Origin: an uncultured Gammaproteobacteria bacterium
GTDB lineage: Bacteria > Pseudomonadota > Gammaproteobacteria > JAJDYQ01
Reading direction: 5' to 3'
Assembly (NCBI GenBank): GCA_942491945.1
Contig: CALODD010000035.1
Span: 4,110-68,109, forward strand
Length of the DNA: 64,000 nt
In this document: piece after piece, positions 12,932 to 23,858 of the stretch
Layout of the letters: every line of letters starts with the position of its first letter
Numbering within the stretch: the first letter of the stretch is position 1
Program-made: the position numbers and the translations under genes
The notes under the pieces: model-generated
The model's input: only the letters and a program-made list of their open reading frames with translations
What the model was told of the DNA's origin: nothing
The model's database searches: none

Positions 12932-15900
12932 CTAGGGACAGCTGCCATTATTTTTTGCCAAATCGACATTAATTGCATGAGTACCTGCGCCTTTATACGC
13001 GGTATACCAGATTGCATTTTTTGTCCCGGTACTTGATATGGTTGTCCCTGAAATCCTGGAAGCATAATCACAAACTGTTTTACTGTATGTAAACTGGACA
13101 GCCACGCCGGCTGATGTAGATGGATTAACCTGGATTGAGCAATTGATGGAATTACCCGATGCCGGAGTACAGTTTCCATCACCACTATTGACGGTTGTAC
13201 CGGTAACAGAATAAGCGGTAGTGTTAGTAATTGATGCAGTCGTATCATATTTCGTGAAACTAAAAAGGAGGTTTACAGTTTCCAGATTTGATGCCACCAC
13301 AACTGATTCGGTTAGATCATCGCCACTCGTAGTATTATCAGTCTCCGTCGCTGTAGCCGAACTGGCATCGTAGGTAATCGTAGTACCTACCGCGACAGCC
13401 GCGTTCACTGACGCATTCACTTGCAATGTAGCACTAGCCCCGACACTGAGATTAAACCCACTCCAGGTCACTGTGCCTGAACTATGTGCCGCAGTACCCG
13501 TCGATGCCGTATGCGATAGATATGTTGAATCAGAAGATAATTTACTGGTAAATGACAGATTAGTAGCAGGGTCGCCGCCATTATTTTTAATCGTCACCAA
13601 ATATTGCAACGCGTCACCGGCCTGCGGTGTGGAGTCTCCACTATTAAGGGTTATATCGGTCTCAATATCAGCCACTGGGCTACTACCTATGGTGATAGTC
13701 TCTGAACGATCATCGCTGGCTATACTATCTACCCCCGGAGCGACAGATTTCGCGACATTAGAAGCATCGATGGTAAAACTTATATTATCTCCTACCGTCC
13801 CCGAATTCACTGACGCATCCAATACAAGCGTTGCCGAGGCATCAACTGCTAACGTAGTCATTGCCCAAGTTCGTGTTCCACTAGTATAAGTGCCCGTACT
13901 CGCATTACTACTTACATACCCTAGTTCTGTTGGCCATGCATCATGGGTCAACGAAACCGTCGTCGCCGCAACAGGGCCATTATTAGTTACTGTAACGGTA
14001 TATTGAACCTGGTCCCCCACCTGAGGAGTCCCATCCCCACTACTCAAAGTAACGTCAGTTTGTAAATCAGCTTCACCCGTAGCCACTACAGATACTGAAG
14101 CACTTAGGCTATCGCCCGTCGTACCTGGGTCGTTGTTATCGCCAGCGGCTGCAGTCGTAATATTGGTCAGTGTTGTGCCTTCCGTACCAGCATTGACTGA
14201 AGCATCGATGACGATATTAACGCTGGCGTCTTTTGCTAAAGAGCCAATCGTCCACAGACCACTGCCTGATGCATAAGTACCCTGAGAAGCTACGGCTGAT
14301 ATAAACGTGAAACCGCCTGGGACTGCATCTGTAAGCTTCACATTCGTATCCGCATCAGGGCCATCATTAGCGACGACAATCTTAAACTGAACCGTATCTC
14401 CCACCTCAGGCGTTGAATCAGCACTATTAAGCGTTTTCACCGTGGTCAGATCAGATGTTTTAGTTGACGAAGTTACCGTACAGCCAAAATTTTTGTTTGT
14501 TACATTTGCTGTTACCGCGCTCCCGGCAAATGAATAAGCTTGATCAGTAGGCGTTGTGCAAGAACCATTCTTCACACTAATGAGAACATTTCCTTCCCAA
14601 CCGATGCCAGTACTATCACTACTATCGTATGTATGAAAAACAGTACATGAATAATCAGCAATTTCTTTACCTGAGCCCATTGATGATCTATCCGTAACAG
14701 TACAATTACCTGCTGTACCATAGGTTTGATCATCTGAAGTATTCACAACAAACGCATCACTAACCAGTACACCATTGCTATTGCTGATAGATCCTGTAAT
14801 CGTATGGGTGAATTCTGGTACCAAGGATGGATTAAAGCCACACCCTGCCGTATCCATAAAGTAAGGGTAACTGCCTTCATTATTAATAATGTTTGTAGAA
14901 GACACATTACCTGAAGCGTCTGCTGAAATAACAGAACTTTCGGCAAGAATAGTATTTCCAGATGCATTTACCGTAATAGTTTCAAATATAATTTGGTCAT
15001 TATCAGCAGCTAGATAGCCCTCTTCCAGCCGTGTATCGCTGGTATACCAATATGGCTGTATCGCATCGGTCACACTATTACCGGACGCATCGGTCGTCTC
15101 GTAATAATGGGATTGATTGAGACAGACAAAATCATCTGGTGTATTGGCAAATGCATTAAGATCGTTCCCTGTATCGTTTCCTGAGGCATCGTATATATTC
15201 AGAAGGAACTCAGATTCATTCTCCATAACGCCTTTACAACCAGCATCATCATCGTTATTCCCAAGATCAAGTGCTAGAAAGTTATGTCCAGGCAGATAGG
15301 CATTACCAGAAGGATCAATACGGTAACCAGAGTTATAATTAGCATTGATATTAGCATCATGAGGACTTGGCAATATCAGCTCATCCTGAACTCCAACTGT
15401 ACGGAAGTTACCTACACCATCACTATTTTCATCGTCTAGTACGAGGTCATTACCTACAGTTGATGCACCTGCGCCCTGATAGTAGTCCTGCGACATCAAT
15501 CCACGGTAGCTGCGTCGGCCGGAAAACTTCGGCCCATTCATACCATAGCCACCATTCGTGACCGGGTCGCCGACACAAACATTGGCCTTTTTATTTGAGA
15601 CACTTTCTTCATGCAATATACTGATATTGCCAAACCAGTTGCCACCCATGTAACAAGTATATGGAAAATAACTATAGTCACCTGTATCAACGAGGGCAGT
15701 CTTGTTTTCAACACAGGCAGCGCCCGGAGTATTTGCAACAAAAATATTACTCACATCAATATCGGCATCGGAATCTTCTAACCAGACATAGCCACTTATT
15801 TCTGAGAAAGTAATACAGGCACCATTGTCACAGGCATCTTCAATTCGTAATAGAATATAACCATTTGCATCAATCAGTTCGACACGGTTCTGAGCTAGAT

Positions 15901-16537
15901 TTGTATAGGTATAGCTACCATCATCGTTCTGCTCAGCACCAGCAGGTATACTGCCATATTTGCCGGTTCCTTCTTTAGCATTACCAGATGATGTTGGATA
16001 GCCATCGACCGAAGCTGAGTCTGATGCAAGCGCTGCCACTTCTTCAGGACTTCTGTATAAAACATTGGTGCTTAATACCACTTCATCTGTATTACCTGTT
16101 TTAGGATCAGTCCAACTTACCTTAACGTCAACAACGACTGTGACCGCACCTGACGCGGCAGTCATGTTCCAGGAGCGAGTAAAATCAGCATTTACGCCGG
16201 CGATCGTTGCTGCTTCAGTAACCGTTGCGGTATCTCCAGCCTGACTATCCAGATAGCTCAGTATGTCAGCTTGAAAAGTATCGGTGGAGTCCAGATTAAT
16301 ATTACGTAATTTGGAAACCAGCTCTGGCTGGTTAATATAATTTCGTACTTCGTCGACTTTTTGCTGGGCAAGAGCTACCGCCTCCGCTCGAGCCTTACTT
16401 GATCCGCTACTCGAGACAAGACTGGACTGAAATTTAGCTACCGCTAACAAACCAACGGCAATAATAACTACCGCAATCAATGCCTCTATCAAGGTAAAAC
16501 CATGAGATTGGCGACGTGAAGAACTAGCATATATCAT
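12932..16537 (-). CDS. giant PilV-type minor pilin fused to an adhesin-like region with three DUF11 repeats
   Basis: The likely start is the ATG at 16537, preceded by GAGGGTG. It gives MIYASSSRRQSHG|FTLIEALIAVVIIAVGLLAVAKFQ, a class III (prepilin) signal with G-1/F+1/E+5 and a PilV-like helix. About 1,150 further aa follow: a Cys/Asp/Asn-rich region, three DUF11-like repeats and a 118-aa Cys-containing C-terminal domain. Confidence 0.8.
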   Translation of the reverse strand: MIYASSSRRQSHGFTLIEALIAVVIIAVGLLAVAKFQSSLVSSSGSSKARAEAVALAQQKVDEVRNYINQPELVSKLRNINLDSTDTFQADILSYLDSQAGDTATVTEAATIAGVNADFTRSWNMTAASGAVTVVVDVKVSWTDPKTGNTDEVVLSTNVLYRSPEEVAALASDSASVDGYPTSSGNAKEGTGKYGSIPAGAEQNDDGSYTYTNLAQNRVELIDANGYILLRIEDACDNGACITFSEISGYVWLEDSDADIDVSNIFVANTPGAACVENKTALVDTGDYSYFPYTCYMGGNWFGNISILHEESVSNKKANVCVGDPVTNGGYGMNGPKFSGRRSYRGLMSQDYYQGAGASTVGNDLVLDDENSDGVGNFRTVGVQDELILPSPHDANINANYNSGYRIDPSGNAYLPGHNFLALDLGNNDDDAGCKGVMENESEFLLNIYDASGNDTGNDLNAFANTPDDFVCLNQSHYYETTDASGNSVTDAIQPYWYTSDTRLEEGYLAADNDQIIFETITVNASGNTILAESSVISADASGNVSSTNIINNEGSYPYFMDTAGCGFNPSLVPEFTHTITGSISNSNGVLVSDAFVVNTSDDQTYGTAGNCTVTDRSSMGSGKEIADYSCTVFHTYDSSDSTGIGWEGNVLISVKNGSCTTPTDQAYSFAGSAVTANVTNKNFGCTVTSSTKTSDLTTVKTLNSADSTPEVGDTVQFKIVVANDGPDADTNVKLTDAVPGGFTFISAVASQGTYASGSGLWTIGSLAKDASVNIVIDASVNAGTEGTTLTNITTAAAGDNNDPGTTGDSLSASVSVVATGEADLQTDVTLSSGDGTPQVGDQVQYTVTVTNNGPVAATTVSLTHDAWPTELGYVSSNASTGTYTSGTRTWAMTTLAVDASATLVLDASVNSGTVGDNISFTIDASNVAKSVAPGVDSIASDDRSETITIGSSPVADIETDITLNSGDSTPQAGDALQYLVTIKNNGGDPATNLSFTSKLSSDSTYLSHTASTGTAAHSSGTVTWSGFNLSVGASATLQVNASVNAAVAVGTTITYDASSATATETDNTTSGDDLTESVVVASNLETVNLLFSFTKYDTTASITNTTAYSVTGTTVNSGDGNCTPASGNSINCSIQVNPSTSAGVAVQFTYSKTVCDYASRISGTTISSTGTKNAIWYTAYKGAGTHAINVDLAKNNGSCP
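13289..14470 (-). repeat. three tandem ~129-136-aa DUF11-type repeats inside the giant pilin gene
   Basis: A recurrent pattern is visible: TPxxGDxVQ[FY]x[IV]xVxNxGPxxAT[NT]VxLT ... G[TS]Y...G.W.[IM]..L....S..[LI]..DASVN. The repeat boundaries were computed from the translation. Confidence 0.7.
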
Positions 16538-16577
16538 GAGTTCACCCTCATTAGATTCAAATGCCCCATATCCCCAC

Positions 16578-17909
16578 CTAAAAGTCTTTCCAGCTACCAG
16601 ATGTTGCGATATTCTCGGCAAGAGCTTCTTCCATATCACGCAAGATGCCGCTGTCATACCAGATATCTAGCGTACCCGTTACCGCTGTATTTGTACCCTC
16701 AACAATCATGGCACCATGAACTTCCGGGTTACCTGCCGTGTCGACATCACCAATTACATAAAGAAGCCCTAGCACTACAGCGCCGTTCGTCTTAAAGTCA
16801 CCATCAATCACGACTAACGATGGCCCTCTCGTCCCCACATCTTTGCAAGGCGTATCGTATGCACCATAATCTGGGCCGCTATTCTTAGCACGCGTACCCA
16901 TTGAGGCGGAACATCCGACTGTAGGGCTGCCCGAAGTATCGCCATCTACCCATATGATTTTATTCGTCGCTAGATTCGCTCCATCCGGATAATCATCCGC
17001 AAAATCTGCTCCGCTGATAACAATATCGGCAACGTTATTTTTAAAGTGTGCTTTCGAAACGCCAAAGGTAGCCATAAAAAACTCATCCGGCGTGTAGTCA
17101 GATAGTGTTGTCTCTCCGTCAATCACATCGCCCATAGTCGCCGTTTTTGCGGCAGCATCAACCACAACACACTTGACATATTCAGTACCTGGGCAACCAT
17201 TATATAAAGTACCATCATCACATTTAAATTCACCACCGCTACAGGCTGGCCAATTGTTATCAGAATTTGTCGAATCCTTACTAGCTACTCGAGTCGAAAC
17301 CGTTGCATTATTGCCTGAAATAGTTGCCACGCCACCCGTCACAATGGTGCCGAAGCCCTCTGGATTATGTATTGTCGCTGAGCCACCAACTACCAGTGAA
17401 CCACGAGCCGTAAAGGGCGTATTTGGCGCTGTTGCCAAAGGGTCATCCGTACCTATCGTTGTAGAAACAGTTCGACTAGCAACCCCGTCACCACTAGTAC
17501 CGACTGATGTAATATAAAAGTTATCAGAGTCACTTACGGTACTGGCATCCATGGCCAGTGTTATTGCCACTGTAGAATTATTATTAAATGTTTTACTATT
17601 TGTCGTCCCTGATGCATCAGTTGCAACTAGCCCGCTTGCATAGAACACGAACTCATCTGATACGGCATCGTCATCATCGTGATCAAAGCCCCCATTCTCA
17701 GCGTAGGCAATAGCCGCTTCCATACCTGCCTCAGCAGCCTCAAATGCCATTTTACTTCGAGCATCATTGCCGGAAATTTTCTGCTCTATCGAAACTGTCT
17801 TTGCTGTATATAGCGTTATCATCGTTATCAGTGTCAGAATAATAAGCGAGATCAATATCGTCATCGCTCCTCGTTGCCTAACCCGTGTACTGGTAGTTAT
17901 TAAACGCAT
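16578..17909 (-). CDS. PilX-family minor pilin/pilus assembly protein, unusually large
   Basis: The N-terminus MRLITTSTRVRQRGAMTILISLIILTLITMITLYTAKT...ARSKMAFEAAEAGMEAAIAY matches the PilX N-terminal domain pattern. The product is about 443 aa. The start is ambiguous between 17909 and 17942. Confidence 0.7.
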   Translation of the reverse strand: MRLITTSTRVRQRGAMTILISLIILTLITMITLYTAKTVSIEQKISGNDARSKMAFEAAEAGMEAAIAYAENGGFDHDDDDAVSDEFVFYASGLVATDASGTTNSKTFNNNSTVAITLAMDASTVSDSDNFYITSVGTSGDGVASRTVSTTIGTDDPLATAPNTPFTARGSLVVGGSATIHNPEGFGTIVTGGVATISGNNATVSTRVASKDSTNSDNNWPACSGGEFKCDDGTLYNGCPGTEYVKCVVVDAAAKTATMGDVIDGETTLSDYTPDEFFMATFGVSKAHFKNNVADIVISGADFADDYPDGANLATNKIIWVDGDTSGSPTVGCSASMGTRAKNSGPDYGAYDTPCKDVGTRGPSLVVIDGDFKTNGAVVLGLLYVIGDVDTAGNPEVHGAMIVEGTNTAVTGTLDIWYDSGILRDMEEALAENIATSGSWKDF

Positions 17910-17919
17910 AAGTTCACCG

Positions 17920-18714
17920 TTATCTAACTCTAATTTGATCATTTCTAACTCTGACCGTGATATTCATGGAAGCATCAACCAGATCATCGCTAATCAATTC
18001 AGCATTTAATGAAATCTCAACGTTGCGTATTTCACCTGTGATATCACCCGCGCTTGGCGCCACACCACCCTGGGATGCATAACAGTTATTTTCATCTACA
18101 CCGCCCGTCGAAGTATCATCATCCTGTGTGGCATTGATACATTGAGCATTAGATAGATCAAACGTTAGTGCATTTACATTTATAGTGTTTTGATCAGTAA
18201 TTCTTTCCCAACTACCTCTGGCACAATCATCCGCATTGGTTCCCGCATAGGAGCAATCGTTGGAAGTCCCAGAATCATCGCAACTACTGCGCATCCATAT
18301 TGCGTTATCAACTAATTTAAAACCTAACAATTCAGTGACGGATGGATTCCCTCCACTGTTATCGGAATCGTAAGCGTAGGTAATGCAGTTGCCACTTCCG
18401 GTATCTCCGGCAGATGTATTTGCTGAGGCATCACGCACATCGAGCGCTGTGCCACCCTCTTCACTAAAAGGGTTACTAGAAGAGTTCGAGGGAGTTGCGT
18501 CAGCCCAGTATCCCGCACGGCGAATGTCAGTAGACATGATATTAACCAATGTCATAATCTCCTGGTTAAGGCGACTTTGCTGCAAGGTATCTTTTGTACT
18601 ATTAAGCGTTGACACATAAACAGTTAATACGCCTGCAACGACAAAAAGGCCTACTGTCATCCCTATCATCAGTTCGACAAGTGTAACGCCGTGTTGTAAA
18701 TTTTGACTCTTCAT
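17920..18714 (-). CDS. PilW-like type IV pilus minor pilin
   Basis: MKSQNLQHG|VTLVELMIGMTVGLFVVAGVLTVY is a prepilin signal with E+5. The ATG at 18714 lies 2 nt after the upstream gene's stop. The track ORF used a TTG at 18723. Confidence 0.75.
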   Translation of the reverse strand: MKSQNLQHGVTLVELMIGMTVGLFVVAGVLTVYVSTLNSTKDTLQQSRLNQEIMTLVNIMSTDIRRAGYWADATPSNSSSNPFSEEGGTALDVRDASANTSAGDTGSGNCITYAYDSDNSGGNPSVTELLGFKLVDNAIWMRSSCDDSGTSNDCSYAGTNADDCARGSWERITDQNTINVNALTFDLSNAQCINATQDDDTSTGGVDENNCYASQGGVAPSAGDITGEIRNVEISLNAELISDDLVDASMNITVRVRNDQIRVR

Positions 18715-18716
18715 AG

Positions 18717-19340
18717 TCAACAATCCGGATAGCCGCCAACTTTATTATTGCCACTCGCATCACTAGGGGGAGAGCAAAGGCTAACTCGACCTAGAGCATT
18801 CACTAGCACTCTAATTTCCCCGCCATCCTCGCCAGCTGCAGCATAATCGGACTGTAGTGTAATAGATCCTGCTGTAGCGGTACCTCGAACGTAACTAAAG
18901 GTTAGGTGAGCATTACTAGAGTAATCGAACGTAGAACCCGTCAAATTCACGCCTACGTAATCTTCATGTTCCATGCGGCGCAGTATATTTTCATCAGCGG
19001 CATCAGCAGCATCAGCATCACCATCATCCACCCGTAGTACGCATGCATTTGCTGCAGTATTTACTATCACATCGGGGTTACATGCAGCAGCTCCAGCAAT
19101 CATTCCAAGATCCCAATCTCGATTACCATCTCGATCAATACTAACGATTATATTCTGAGAGCGAGCCACTGCCTCTGAACGAGCAGACTGGAGTTCACCA
19201 TATAACCCTTCCGCACCCGCAATTAGACGTTTCTTATCAAAAAAGCCACCCAGATTAGGGAGTGCGAACGTAGCAACAATAGCTAGTATCGCCACAGTAA
19301 TCATGAGCTCCATTAGAGTAAAACCAGTATAGGCACGCAT
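18717..19340 (-). CDS. FimT/FimU (GspH-family) type IV minor pilin
   Basis: MRAYTG|FTLMELMITVAILAIVATFALPNLGGFFDKKRL... shows the typical GspH/FimT N-terminus. Confidence 0.75.
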   Translation of the reverse strand: MRAYTGFTLMELMITVAILAIVATFALPNLGGFFDKKRLIAGAEGLYGELQSARSEAVARSQNIIVSIDRDGNRDWDLGMIAGAAACNPDVIVNTAANACVLRVDDGDADAADAADENILRRMEHEDYVGVNLTGSTFDYSSNAHLTFSYVRGTATAGSITLQSDYAAAGEDGGEIRVLVNALGRVSLCSPPSDASGNNKVGGYPDC

Positions 19341-19507
19341 ATTCTTTCAATAAGCAATCTAGTGCGTTAATTATATGCTAGTTACTAACCGCTTGGCAGG
19401 ATTGTGAGCACCGATCATCCGAAAAAATATACATTCCATCTGCTTCACGGTAGCATTGGCACAATATGCAAATTAAAACTAGCCCACACCCATACGGAAC
19501 ATACAAG

Positions 19508-19996
19508 ATGAGCACTCGTGCATACGCTAAAGGATTCACACTAATTGAGCTAATGATAGTAGTAGCAATCATCGGGATACTAGCCTCAATTGCAACTCCC
19601 GCATACAACTCTTACGTACAAAGAGCTAAACGAACCGATGCAACAACTGCACTAAGCCAAATTCAGCTTACGCAAGAAAAACTACGAGCTAACTGCCGAT
19701 ATTACGGCCTTGAGGGCGCTTCGAGCAGCTGCGGCGCAAACGCTGCTGCAACCACTGTATCTGTAGCTGACTCAGATGCTGGCACCGCTGGCTACCAGAG
19801 TCCAGAAGGACACTACACCCTTGATATTTCTAGCAACAGCGGCACCGCATATACTGCAACAGCAACTGCTTCATCTACATCACAATTGGGAGATACGGAT
19901 TGTCGTGTATTCACATTAAAAATAGAGCCAGCTAACCCGCAAGGCGAAAAAACCAGTACAGATAGTGGCGGAAGTGCCTCAACGAATTGCTGGTAA
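19508..19996 (+). CDS. PilE-like type IVa pilin
   Basis: MSTRAYAKG|[36 protein letters not shown]. The C-terminus has a Cys pair (disulfide loop). The first ATG giving a short leader is at 19508. Confidence 0.8.
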
Positions 19997-20587
19997 TCAC
20001 CAACTGCAACTTTTCGTTGGATATCCTGCAACGTGACCATCACCTGAGGGCGAACACATTCGGATTCTACCCAGCAGCCCGGTTACCACTTTTAGACGGT
20101 AGCCGGACTCTGACTCAAGTTTTACGCTTCCAGCCTTAGCTGTTCCACGGACATATTTAAATTTTGCTTCATCAGAGCCAAAGGTAACATTACTCACACT
20201 GACTCCAGTGTAGTCATTACTCACGACTTTATACTGCACGTAGTCATCTGAATCCAAAACCCCGTCACCATCATCAATGATGATATAACAGGGGTTACTA
20301 TCTACCATTGCATGGTCAGGATTGCATCCAGATGTTTGACTAATCACCGCTACCCACTCGGTCGAACCACTGATCTCGAAATCCACATACGTGTCGGCTG
20401 AAGTAGCAATCGCGTGCGCACGAGCTAATTGCAAATAGCCATATATTGCTTCACCTGCAGCAATTAAATGACGCTTTTCGAAATAACTATTGAGGTTAGG
20501 AACTGCTATCGCCACGAGCATCGATAGAATCGAAATCGTCATCAATAACTCGATTATTGTGAACCCCGCATACAAATAATGTCGCAT
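19997..20587 (-). CDS. second FimT/GspH-family minor pilin (paralog of 18717..19340)
   Basis: GGAGGG precedes the ATG at 20587. The product starts MRHYLYAG|FTIIELLMTISILSMLVAIAVPNLNSYFEKRHL. Its C-terminus (LGRIRMCSP...GYP) parallels the other copy (LGRVSLCSP...GYP). Confidence 0.75.
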   Translation of the reverse strand: MRHYLYAGFTIIELLMTISILSMLVAIAVPNLNSYFEKRHLIAAGEAIYGYLQLARAHAIATSADTYVDFEISGSTEWVAVISQTSGCNPDHAMVDSNPCYIIIDDGDGVLDSDDYVQYKVVSNDYTGVSVSNVTFGSDEAKFKYVRGTAKAGSVKLESESGYRLKVVTGLLGRIRMCSPSGDGHVAGYPTKSCSW

Positions 20588-20638
20588 AATCCCTCCGGAC
20601 AACCCAGAGAAATCATGCGGCATTTAATCCATTAATTA

Positions 20639-20697: not shown

Positions 20698-21726
20698 CTA
20701 AGCTTCAACAGTTTCAACTTCTGCACTATCTGCAGGCTCTATACCCAGCAGTTTTTGTCGCAGTGCCGCGTCCACTTCCTCAACTATTTCAGGATGCTCT
20801 TTCAGGTACTGACGGACATTTTCTTTACCCTGACCGATACGATCTTCACCATAGCTATACCAGGCGCCTGCTTTCTTGATAAGACCATGCTCAACGCCGA
20901 GGTCAATAATCTCGCCCAGGAACGAAATACCTTCGCCGTAAAGAATTTCAAAAGTCGCGATCTTGAATGGCGGCGCCATTTTATTCTTAACCACTTTCAC
21001 CTTCGTATCGTTACCGACAATTTCATCACCTTTCTTGATTGCACCAGTACGGCGAATATCTAACCGAACCGACGCGTAGAACTTCAGTGCGTTACCACCA
21101 GTGGTCGTTTCAGGATTGCCAAACATTACACCGATCTTCATACGAATCTGGTTAATGAAAATCACCATCGTGTTAGAGCGCTTGATATTTCCCGTGAGCT
21201 TACGCAGCGCCTGCGACATGAGACGGGCCTGCAGACCCATATGCGAATCACCCATCTCACCTTCAATTTCTGCCTTCGGTGTTAGGGCCGCAACTGAGTC
21301 AATCACGACCAGATCAACCGCCCCAGAGCGCACCAGCATGTCGGTAATCTCCAGGGCTTGCTCACCGGTGTCCGGCTGAGACACCAATAAATCATCAATC
21401 GAGACATTAAGCTTTTCTGCATAACTCGGGTCTAGCGCATGTTCGGCATCGACAAATGCCACGGTTCCGCCCTGCTTTTGCGCCTCAGCAGCTACCTGCA
21501 ATGACAATGTTGTTTTACCGGAAGATTCAGGGCCGTAGATCTCGATAATCCGCCCCTTCGGTAAACCACCGATTCCCAGCGCCACATCCAGTGCCAGTGA
21601 GCCCGTCGGAATCACCTCAATATCAGTCGCTTTGCCATCACCCATACGCATCACAGAACCCTGGCCAAACTGCTTTTCTATCTGAGAGAGCGCTGCGGCG
21701 AGTGCTTTTTGTTTTTGATCTTCCAT
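20698..21726 (-). CDS. recA: recombinase RecA
   Basis: 342 aa with the Walker A motif GPESSGKTT. Similarity to RecA is unmistakable along the full length. AGGAGG lies 7 nt upstream of the ATG. Confidence 0.97.
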
Positions 21727-21778
21727 TTCATTGCCTCCTGTGGCGATTATCTTTTCCGCCTCCTGGCGGGATAACTGA

Positions 21779-21807
21779 AATGTAGTTTATACTTTTTATT
21801 ATGTCAA
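21779..21807 (-). promoter_or_regulatory. putative sigma70 promoter of recA
   Basis: On the minus strand: TTGACA (21807..21802), a 17-nt spacer, then TACATT (21784..21779), about 53 nt upstream of the recA ATG. Confidence 0.45.
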
Positions 21808-21834
21808 TACTTTTTATCATACATATACTTTTTA
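21789..21834. promoter_or_regulatory. three exact direct repeats ATACTTTTTA at 18-bp phasing (candidate operator)
   Basis: Exact 10-mers occur at 21789..21798, 21807..21816 and 21825..21834. The first lies in the promoter spacer, the second overlaps the -35 hexamer and the third is upstream of it. All sit in the recA / WYL-regulator divergent intergenic region. Confidence 0.5.
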
Positions 21835-21900
21835 CCACCAAAAGACTTTATATTTAGCTCCATATTGAGAATAATCCATCTGAATAACTGCGGTATAAGA

Positions 21901-22797
21901 ATGGAAATACGAATGGCCGATATAAAGACACAACAGGACATCAAGTGGAATACGCGCCAGCGGCTGCAATATATCGAGATTATGGCCTGGTATACCGGCG
22001 TCGTGAGCAGAAGCGACCTAGCCCGTACCTTTGGTCTATCCGACCCGGCCGCAACCAAGAACCTCAAATTATATAGCGACCTGGCACCGAAAAATCTGAT
22101 TTACCAGCAGAGTGTCTTTGGCTTTGTTCCCAGTGATAGCTTTGTTGCTATGTTTGCGGATTTATCACCCCAGGTCGCACTGCCATTGATGGCCGATAAT
22201 CGAGCGATCATAAGCCAGCCATTCGGTGAGATGCCGGTCTACGGCATTCCAACAGCACAATTACCACTACCCGCACGTTATCCAACTCAAGATATACTCG
22301 CACAACTGACCAGAGCGATTCGGCATCAACGCAAGGTAGAGGTCAGCTATCACTCACTATCTGGCAATACTGAACCACGGATTATCGAACCTCATTCACT
22401 GGTAAATAACGGCCTGCGCTGGCATCTACGTGCGTACAACAATCAGAGTTTCGATTTCAGAGACTTTGTACTGGCACGTGTTAGCACAGCTCAAATGCTG
22501 GATGAGCCGATGGAATCAGATGCACTGTACGATGAGGATTGGACCGACACCGTCGTTATTCAGCTATCGCCCCACCCTGGACTCAACGAACAAAAGCAAC
22601 TGGGCTTAAAACTGGATTATCAGATGCAAGGAAATATCCTGGAAATTGAAGTACGCCGCGCATTGGCAGGCTACCTGCTACAACGCCTTTCGGTTGATAC
22701 AACGGCAGATCACCATTTAAATGCAGACGCGTATCAGCTGATCGTTGCCAACCGAGATGAAATTGAGCCTTACTGTGGCTGGGTTTTCAGTAATTAA
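21901..22797 (+). CDS. wHTH + WYL-domain transcriptional regulator
   Basis: The N-terminal HTH-like region reads RQRLQYIEIMAWYTGVVSRSDLARTFGLSDPAATKNLKLY. The WYL-type core reads RIIEPHSLVNNGLRWHLRAYNNQSFDFRDFVLARV. The first ATG is at 21901; the track ORF starts at a TTG at 21865. Confidence 0.65.
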   Translation: MEIRMADIKTQQDIKWNTRQRLQYIEIMAWYTGVVSRSDLARTFGLSDPAATKNLKLYSDLAPKNLIYQQSVFGFVPSDSFVAMFADLSPQVALPLMADNRAIISQPFGEMPVYGIPTAQLPLPARYPTQDILAQLTRAIRHQRKVEVSYHSLSGNTEPRIIEPHSLVNNGLRWHLRAYNNQSFDFRDFVLARVSTAQMLDEPMESDALYDEDWTDTVVIQLSPHPGLNEQKQLGLKLDYQMQGNILEIEVRRALAGYLLQRLSVDTTADHHLNADAYQLIVANRDEIEPYCGWVFSN

Positions 22798-23308
22798 ACC
22801 CCCAATCAGCCAGAACATCATATATAGGCCCAGCTGACCTCAATCGTGATTCGACTAACGAAAAACCATTTACTCGCCAGTGAATCGGCACGATCTCATG
22901 CGTCATGATTGATGAGGCATCCGCTCGCCGCGCCATCGTCACGTGTGGTTTATAAGCTCGTTTCTCTCGTGCAATACCAACCACCGATAAGGCATGTTGA
23001 AGGTCAGCCTGCAATACCATTAACTCATCGATCGGTTTTGATGGATGCAATCCGACAATACCCGTCTTTGTCCAGCTGAAGACCTCATCTATAACCACTT
23101 CAAACGACCTCGCTACCACGCCATCTGCAGCCAATCCGATCGCATCCATCATGTCATCGGGCTGATCCCCAAGGAATGACAGCGTCATATGAAAGTTATC
23201 TGAATTAACCGGATGCTCAAAAATACCCAGCTGTCGTTGCCCCAAGGCCAATGCCTGACGAATTTCGGCATCTGGCCAAAGAGCGAAGAACAAGCGCCTT
23301 TTCTTCAT
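22787..23308 (-). CDS. thpR: RNA 2',3'-cyclic phosphodiesterase ThpR/LigT (2H phosphoesterase)
   Basis: 173 aa with two HxT/S motifs (HMTLSFLG and HVTMAR). Confidence 0.8.
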   Translation of the reverse strand: MKKRRLFFALWPDAEIRQALALGQRQLGIFEHPVNSDNFHMTLSFLGDQPDDMMDAIGLAADGVVARSFEVVIDEVFSWTKTGIVGLHPSKPIDELMVLQADLQHALSVVGIAREKRAYKPHVTMARRADASSIMTHEIVPIHWRVNGFSLVESRLRSAGPIYDVLADWGFNY

Positions 23309-23781
23309 TCGCTAATAAATCTCAGCAAACCCGCCAATGCATAATCTGCTGCCGCCCCACGTACTGCTTCTCGATCCCCATCAAAATGCTGCGCCTCTTC
23401 CTCTACACGATCTGCTGCTGCCCAGGCGAACCAGACTGTGCCAACCGGCTTCTCGTCAGTTCCACCATCAGGACCAGCAATACCGCTGATCGCTATCGAT
23501 AGATCGGCATGACTTTTTTTAATCGCCCCGGCAGCCATCTCATGAACGGTCTCACAGCTCACCGCACCATGGCTATCCAGTATCTGTGAACTAACTCCGA
23601 GCATCTCGACTTTGGCTTCATTGCTGTAGGTCACAAAGCCTCGCTCAAACCAGGCCGAACTTCCGGCCTGATCTGTTAGCAGCTTTGCTACAAGCCCAGC
23701 AGTACATGATTCCGCGGTCGCGACTTTTAAATCTCGCTTCAGCAATTGCTGGCTTAGTTTATTGATCGTGCTAGCACTCAT
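23305..23781 (-). CDS. pncC: CinA C-terminal-domain protein / nicotinamide-nucleotide amidohydrolase PncC
   Basis: Contains ATAESCTAGLVAKLLTDQAGSSAWFERGFVTYSNEAK. The likely start is MSASTINK at 23781. It overlaps thpR by ATGA. Confidence 0.85.
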   Translation of the reverse strand: MSASTINKLSQQLLKRDLKVATAESCTAGLVAKLLTDQAGSSAWFERGFVTYSNEAKVEMLGVSSQILDSHGAVSCETVHEMAAGAIKKSHADLSIAISGIAGPDGGTDEKPVGTVWFAWAAADRVEEEAQHFDGDREAVRGAAADYALAGLLRFISE

Positions 23782-23858
23782 TGCATTATCTCTAAATATT
23801 CTAACCCTCGGCATCGGCTTTCGCCTGTATTCTTGTATAATCGCGCCGCATTCACATC

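Follow-up and report, generated by a model that had tools for sequence, protein, structure and literature searches.

The recA gene in a stretch of DNA from an uncultured Gammaproteobacteria bacterium probably answers to the regulator encoded beside it, a WYL-domain protein of a kind so far known only from anti-phage defence genes. The stretch, called the window below, comprises 64,000 nucleotides (64 kb) of contig CALODD010000035.1, and all coordinates are counted from its first letter. An original prediction, made from the letters of the window, had proposed that recA lacks a LexA site and carries instead three phased repeats over its promoter, next to a divergently transcribed WYL regulator gene. 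Sequence comparison strongly supports control of recA by this regulator, through the phased repeats, rather than through a LexA box, because the two genes are paired in every informative locus, the repeats stand in a fixed register with the promoter, and no LexA box is present in any of 109 related regions. In the mechanism that we consider reasonably probable from the analysis as a whole, a dimer of the WYL protein represses both recA and its own gene and is released by the single-stranded DNA (ssDNA) that damage produces.

The known routes of recA induction are cleavage of LexA and activation by WYL proteins (PafBC, DdaA), and a WYL protein of the repressor class at recA would be a third design, in which the repressor reads ssDNA directly and RecA closes the loop by removing the signal. 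If this is true, the role of the CapW/BrxR family extends beyond phage defence, and the family would gain a conserved and well-defined operator of about 75 bp for study. The clade that carries the arrangement is common in sediment, wetland, and wastewater metagenomes (at least 338 relatives), and the arrangement also occurs in the culturable Thiobacillus denitrificans and T. thioparus, so that the prediction is directly testable. More tentatively, with somewhat less than even confidence, a CapW/BrxR-type ssDNA sensor may have replaced LexA at recA, and perhaps across a wider damage regulon, in a large clade of Proteobacteria of the sulfur cycle, most of them uncultured (Thiobacillus and Chromatiales-like Gammaproteobacteria), which would tie the CapW and BrxR proteins of defence islands by descent to a housekeeping damage regulator.

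Repeats over the recA promoter

The sequence ATACTTTTTA occurs in exact copies at 21789, 21807, and 21825 (plus strand), in steps of 18 bp; the three repeats and their spacing are as originally described, and no other exact copy exists in the window. A degenerate form of the core, RTA-[ACT]W4-TAY, is found at 7 positions in the window, compared with a mean of 6.9 after shuffling. Cores spaced 18 bp apart (two pairs and one triple) are confined to the recA/WYL intergenic region, with no second such pair elsewhere in the window. Shuffled sequences (n = 200) contained on average 0.005 pairs and no triples, and since they do not yield such arrays, the 18-bp array is not a chance product. The best sigma-70 match on the recA strand in a promoter scan is TTGACA (21807..21802) and TACATT (21784..21779) with a 17-bp spacer, agreeing at 10 of 12 positions. 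The overlap between repeats and promoter that had been noted holds here: repeat 1 lies within the spacer and repeat 2 overlaps the -35 hexamer by one base. The features of this region are as follows.

20698..21726, minus strand: recA coding sequence (Pfam RecA, E = 7e-145, and RecA_C), the presumed target.
21779..21784, minus strand: recA -10 hexamer TACATT, from the promoter scan; TAnnnT at the same column in 92 of 92 aligned unique promoters.
21802..21807, minus strand: recA -35 hexamer TTGACA, from the promoter scan; TTGACA in 90 of 92 aligned promoters.
21782..21792, no strand assigned: site 0, GTAGTTTATAC, which fits RTA-N5-TAY and overlaps the recA -10; 44 of 92 promoters match at this column.
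21789..21799, no strand assigned: site 1, ATACTTTTTAT, an exact repeat (repeat 1) within the 17-bp recA spacer.
21807..21817, no strand assigned: site 2, ATACTTTTTAT, repeat 2 and the candidate universal operator; 92 of 92 unique promoters match RTA-N5-TAY.
21825..21835, no strand assigned: site 3, ATACTTTTTAC, repeat 3, 18 bp beyond site 2; RTA-N5-TAY in 74 of 92 promoters.
21843..21853, no strand assigned: site 4, AGACTTTATAT, a degenerate fourth repeat (third 18-bp step of repeat family D1) that overlaps the candidate -35 of the WYL gene.
21847..21875, plus strand: candidate WYL-gene promoter TTTATA-17-AATAAT, from the promoter scan, 9 of 12 positions.
21913..22797, plus strand: CapW/BrxR-type regulator of 294 amino acids with winged helix-turn-helix (wHTH), WYL, and WCX domains (Pfam WYL; WHD_BrxR, WYL, and BrxR_CTD architecture).

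The intergenic regions of related loci were aligned on GTCAA at the -35, which stands in the right context in 105 of the 109 regions, and the resulting 92 unique promoters align without a gap over about 75 bp, from the recA -10 through the WYL -35. The flanks of this block cannot be aligned, and the G+C content of the host genomes spans about 46% to about 66%. Within the block, site 2 abuts the recA -35, with the one shared base already mentioned, and has its centre near -40. The other sites are kept less evenly: at site 1 the left half (ATAYWTTT) alone is kept family-wide and the full palindrome is restricted to window-like lineages, and at site 4 an RTA-N5-TAY match stands at its own column or the preceding one in 35 of 92 promoters. 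Site 0 has the top dyad score in a symmetry scan. On the WYL side, relatives carry a TTgTAT or TTTATA block at equal columns, followed in Thiobacillus by TATAAT. Clusters of relatives at 41-52% protein identity show the same layout, with the -35 hexamer and two sites 18 bp apart.

At the five central bases of the sites, 42 promoters have a TTTTT-like tract and 50 (Thiobacillus) an AAAAA-like one, and the ATA and TAY ends are constant. The alignments identify the conserved unit as a pseudo-palindrome, RTA-N5-TAY, whose centre is A/T-rich, and the 10-mers of the window are its local form. The earlier description of a phased 10-mer stands as far as the array is concerned, but the unit is not the direct 10-mer as such, given the AAAAA centre in Thiobacillus. 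This palindromic reading rests on the ends and the flipping centre because the dyad scan of the aligned promoters showed no symmetry in the flanks and did not single out the site centres. The predicted sites abut or overlap the recA -35, spacer, and -10 and the WYL -35, which would place a candidate operator over the core promoter in a manner like that of CapW and BrxR. The repeats are also kept in the closest relatives, at loci encoding WYL proteins with 84% and 73% identity to the window protein, so that the absence of the motif from close relatives, which had been named as an outcome that would speak against WYL control, was not what we found.

No known alternative motif occupies the region. 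The original prediction had reported no LexA site upstream of recA, and in agreement with this there is no CTGT-N8-ACAG between recA and the WYL gene, even when one mismatch is allowed, and no exact match to it in the entire window; none of five LexA motif types occurs in the window intergenic region or in the 109 orthologous intergenic regions. The DdaA motif CGWCA-N5-TGWCG and the DriD motif CGAC-N7-GTCG are likewise absent from the window intergenic region and the 109 regions. A tblastn search with E. coli LexA gave no match to a lexA gene in the window or in loci L001-L032, which cover a small fraction of each genome.

A GC-rich hairpin, CCGCC-AGGA-GGCGG, lies at 21756-21769 in the minus-strand RNA, about 3 nt past the predicted start of recA transcription. 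Its position is kept in relatives with other letters, for example, CCGCC-TTGA-GGCGG (L029) and CCCC-TATG-GGGG (L031), and a longer hairpin is found in Thiobacillus. It may serve to stabilise the 5' end of the recA messenger RNA. An Rfam search found no structured RNA in the window.

The divergent regulator and its pairing with recA

The gene that diverges from recA had been described as encoding a wHTH-WYL protein at 21901..22797. The gene and its domains are borne out, but the start codon is not: the database protein begins at 21913, the longest open reading frame starts from TTG 21865, and the ATG at 21901 was the choice of the original prediction. We favour the ATG at 21913, which agrees with the database protein and with alignments of orthologues and has a GGA 5-9 nt upstream.

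Over nearly its full length (residues 5-292) the protein matches the solved structures of CapW and BrxR in the PDB: 7tb5 (1e-39), 7qfz (3e-38), 7t8k (2e-37), 9c5g (1e-36), and 7tb6 (1e-35). The match to PafBC has an E of 5e-5 and covers the WYL domain only, and there is no sequence match to DriD. An AlphaFold2 monomer model of medium confidence (mean predicted local distance difference test of 71.9), used solely to rank folds, gave the same order: Foldseek returned BrxR and CapW at E = 1e-23 to 1e-20, with BrxR on top, and DriD and PafBC at 1e-9. The ligand site points the same way. In CapW of R. leguminosarum, ssDNA is contacted by S144, R164, R168, and R184, the middle two of which lie in a conserved RWHVR motif (PMC11662680); in an alignment to 9c5g these correspond to S148, R169, R173 (within RWHLR), and R189 of the window protein, and all four are invariant in 18 orthologues. 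Because sequence, fold, and ligand site all agree, we assign the window protein to the CapW/BrxR repressor class. Close sequence or structural kinship to the PafBC/DriD/DdaA activator class was not found. The analogues that had been named beforehand thus divide by sequence and by Foldseek, with CapW and BrxR being apt and PafBC and DriD, as activators, not.

On the DNA-binding side, residues R32, S42, and S47 of the Sm CapW wHTH domain correspond to the invariant R33, S43, and T48 of the window family, and Q45 is replaced by A46, a change that is compatible with a different DNA specificity. The recognition helix, LSD[PA]AATK[DN]LK, is conserved in the family to the same degree as the sites themselves.

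These comparisons suggest that the window protein is close to CapW (PDB 7TB5, 7TB6, 9C5G; PMC9122588, PMC11662680) in its full-length homology, equal length, and three-domain layout, in the RWH(V/L)R motif and all four ssDNA-contact residues, and in the divergent placement of the gene and its presumed target, with candidate operators across a bidirectional promoter. It differs in that its neighbour is the housekeeping repair gene recA rather than the anti-phage operon of CapW, in having an array of 3-5 sites at 18-bp steps where CapW has a single 19-24 bp palindrome over the -10, and in its recognition helix (SDPAAT instead of SxPQAS), with an overall identity of about 30-35%. With BrxR (PDB 7T8K, 7QFZ; PMC9122589, PMC9122601) it shares fold, architecture, and the candidate operator design, in which two half-sites surround a 5-bp A/T-rich centre and the operator overlaps a -35. 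However, the window protein has other residues in place of the SRQQ motif with which Acinetobacter BrxR contacts bases, and the conserved bases lie at positions 3-5 on either side of the dyad centre in the window, compared with 6-7 in BrxR.

The pairing with recA is the rule among relatives. In 28 loci from GTDB genomes (T. denitrificans, T. thioparus, and many metagenome-assembled genomes) and in 4 loci from closer relatives, recA and the WYL gene are divergent, and cinA usually converges on the WYL gene. Counted over 31 genome loci, recA is divergent in 30; the other, L018, has no visible recA, with only 182 bp available upstream of the WYL gene. A metagenome scan confirmed the relatives counted above, of which 80 loci were kept, and recA is divergent in all 66 metagenome loci with enough upstream DNA. 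An apparent exception, L048, was rejected since it contains a short recA fragment and the operator block. L048 is also unusual in carrying, at 230-510, an unrelated G+C-rich insertion of about 250 bp between the operator block and the WYL start codon, with the recA side intact.

At greater distance, an exhaustive search of representatives at 50% identity gave 1975 relatives at E up to 1e-3 and 188 at E up to 1e-30. Divergence from recA holds throughout the best-scoring full-length clusters (P0122 to P0128, 59-41% identity), including those with other genes in the place of cinA. Five distant clusters with recA in this orientation lie at 41-52% identity. The next cluster with readable DNA, P0132 (38%), lies upstream of a gene for a 1745-amino-acid protein with DEAD, Helicase_C, and MZB domains, which is a defence-type context typical of BrxR and CapW, and the first such context to appear as identity falls. 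A rough neighbour-joining tree, computed without bootstrap, places the recA-linked clusters in one group. Among the recA-linked relatives themselves, the defence-system neighbour that marks the CapW/BrxR class was not found, and recA adjoins the WYL gene in every informative locus. Published surveys of CapW and BrxR neighbourhoods report defence systems and leave recA unmentioned, and a full-text literature search found no recA-linked WYL repressor.

Two of the distant recA-linked loci have peculiarities of their own. In L118 (41% identity), a gene for a Y-family DNA polymerase (Pfam IMS) directly follows the WYL gene on the same strand (1532-2698), and no clear copy of the operator is present in the gap 5' of the polymerase gene. 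In L114, the recA-linked homologue P0124 (3001-3870, 45% identity) carries SHWYAR instead of RWHVR, has H at the position of R189, and gives no Pfam WYL match; judging from these residues, ssDNA sensing may have been lost in this protein.

A proposed repressor circuit and its alternatives

CapW and BrxR are repressors whose operators lie over the -10 or -35 beside their own gene (PMC9122588, PMC9122589, PMC9122601), and CapW represses in both directions (PMC9122588). CapW leaves the DNA when ssDNA from damage processing binds its WYL domain, and in a recA mutant a CapW reporter is de-repressed from the outset (PMC11662680). In a co-crystal of BrxR with DNA, the operator, which overlaps a -35, has its two half-sites on either side of an A/T-rich 5-bp centre whose minor groove is narrowed (PMC9122589).

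By analogy, the recA/WYL intergenic region would be a bidirectional operator-promoter module. The repressor is expected from its solved homologues to act as a dimer, and dimers would bind the RTA-N5-TAY sites 18 bp apart at 21789, 21807, and 21825, the weaker site at 21843, and possibly the further match at 21782 over the -10. Occupied sites would cover the -35 and spacer of the near-consensus sigma-70 recA promoter as well as the -35 of the regulator's own gene, and with both promoters covered, recA and the WYL gene would be held down in undamaged cells. After damage, ssDNA would bind the WYL domain through S148, R169, R173, and R189, and the ssDNA-bound dimer would leave the DNA, inducing recA without any need for LexA cleavage or a RecA filament. 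Repression would return as free ssDNA is cleared by RecA and repair. We propose a repressor rather than an activator because the recA promoter is near consensus and sites lie at the -35, in the spacer, and over the -10, unlike the arrangement at DriD-activated promoters. The predicted logic is that of LexA and its SOS box, an autoregulated repressor over the recA promoter that is released by damage, but the protein is unrelated, and the proposed release is by direct binding of ssDNA rather than by self-cleavage stimulated by a RecA filament.

Several observations weigh against this circuit. The centre of site 2, near -40, is the classical position of a class II activator. The flanks beyond the ATA/TAY cores lack two-fold symmetry, the 18-bp units read as direct repeats in many lineages, which is unusual for a symmetric dimer, and at 18 bp from centre to centre, footprints of the 25 bp seen for BrxR would overlap. 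The recA-linked homologue P0124 has degenerate ligand residues. The structural model is of medium confidence, and its template-modelling (TM) scores to solved structures are near 0.3, a low value that is expected because a monomer model was compared with solved dimers. Finally, the independence from LexA holds for this recA promoter only.

The activator position of site 2 is in keeping with an unlikely alternative, namely that the WYL protein binds these same sites yet activates recA, as DdaA, DriD, and PafBC do, with ssDNA promoting binding and a dimer at site 2 recruiting RNA polymerase. Known WYL regulators of recA or of the damage response include PafBC, DriD, SiwR, and DdaA, and those for which such control has been demonstrated to date are all activators. 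DdaA in particular activates recA and the damage response in Acinetobacter and other Moraxellaceae (PMC12392091, PMC13010146), which is a precedent at odds with the earlier statement that a WYL-controlled recA would be unusual in a gammaproteobacterium, although DdaA is an activator from another clade with another motif. DdaA resembles the proposed regulator in controlling recA through a WYL protein in Gammaproteobacteria without LexA, with ssDNA as the signal (PMC12392091, PMC13010146); it is unlike it in being an activator of about 38.7 kDa from a separate clade next to DriD, and in recognising CGWCA-N5-TGWCG, and a ddaA gene adjoining recA is not described in PMC12392091 or PMC13010146. PafBC of actinobacteria and DriD of Caulobacter share the ssDNA-sensing WYL domain and a role in the damage response, and PafBC induces recA, but both are activators, their target promoters have no -35, and sequence kinship to them is confined to the WYL domain. 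What argues against activation here is that the protein falls by sequence and fold in the repressor class with its RWHVR-type motif, that the promoter has a near-invariant consensus -35 and a 17-bp spacer whereas DriD-activated promoters have no -35 hexamer (PMC13004042), and that the spacer and the -10 hold additional sites.

Alternatively, and a little less likely again, some other factor, such as a nucleoid protein or a non-canonical LexA, reads the A/T-rich repeats, or UP-element-like or curved DNA tunes the promoter, and the WYL protein acts elsewhere. The A/T-rich sites do lie just upstream of the -35, where an UP element would be, and lineage-specific LexA motifs exist. However, the ATA and TAY ends are kept while the central tract flips its orientation, which argues for recognition of a dyad by a protein rather than a generic effect of A-tracts, and the 18-bp period is out of helical phase, so that curvature would not add up. 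Moreover, motif and WYL gene occur together at every locus, the recognition helix is equally conserved, and no known type of LexA motif is present in the 109 regions.

Least probable of all is that the sites merely autoregulate the WYL gene, or serve cinA or other targets, with recA an unregulated neighbour: BrxR and CapW do autoregulate from sites adjoining their own genes and site 4 overlaps the candidate WYL -35, but the best-kept site lies against the recA -35 in 92 of 92 promoters, the whole block is in gapless register with the recA -35 and -10, the linkage to recA is kept down to 41% identity even without cinA, and the spacing between the block and the WYL start codon varies, as the insertion in L048 illustrates.

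Neighbouring genes

The WYL gene had been placed between recA and a cinA-thpR pair, and the annotation of the window agrees, with the regulator gene followed by two genes on the opposite strand.

22787..23308, minus strand: thpR (NCBIfam and Pfam), convergent with the WYL gene.
23305..23814, minus strand: cinA/pncC (NCBIfam and Pfam), conserved context.

Across relatives, cinA is convergent with the WYL gene in most loci and absent in L113 and L114. In the window, thpR and the WYL gene converge with an 11-bp overlap (22787-22797). There is no terminator-like site on the minus strand between thpR and the recA promoter, so that transcripts continuing past cinA-thpR would run antisense through the WYL gene and then sense into recA. 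Directly downstream of recA, at 12932-20623, lies a cluster of type IV pilus minor-pilin genes, a position occupied by recX in more distant relatives; the cluster includes a gene for a 1241-amino-acid protein with a PilV-like N-terminus and a DUF11 repeat.

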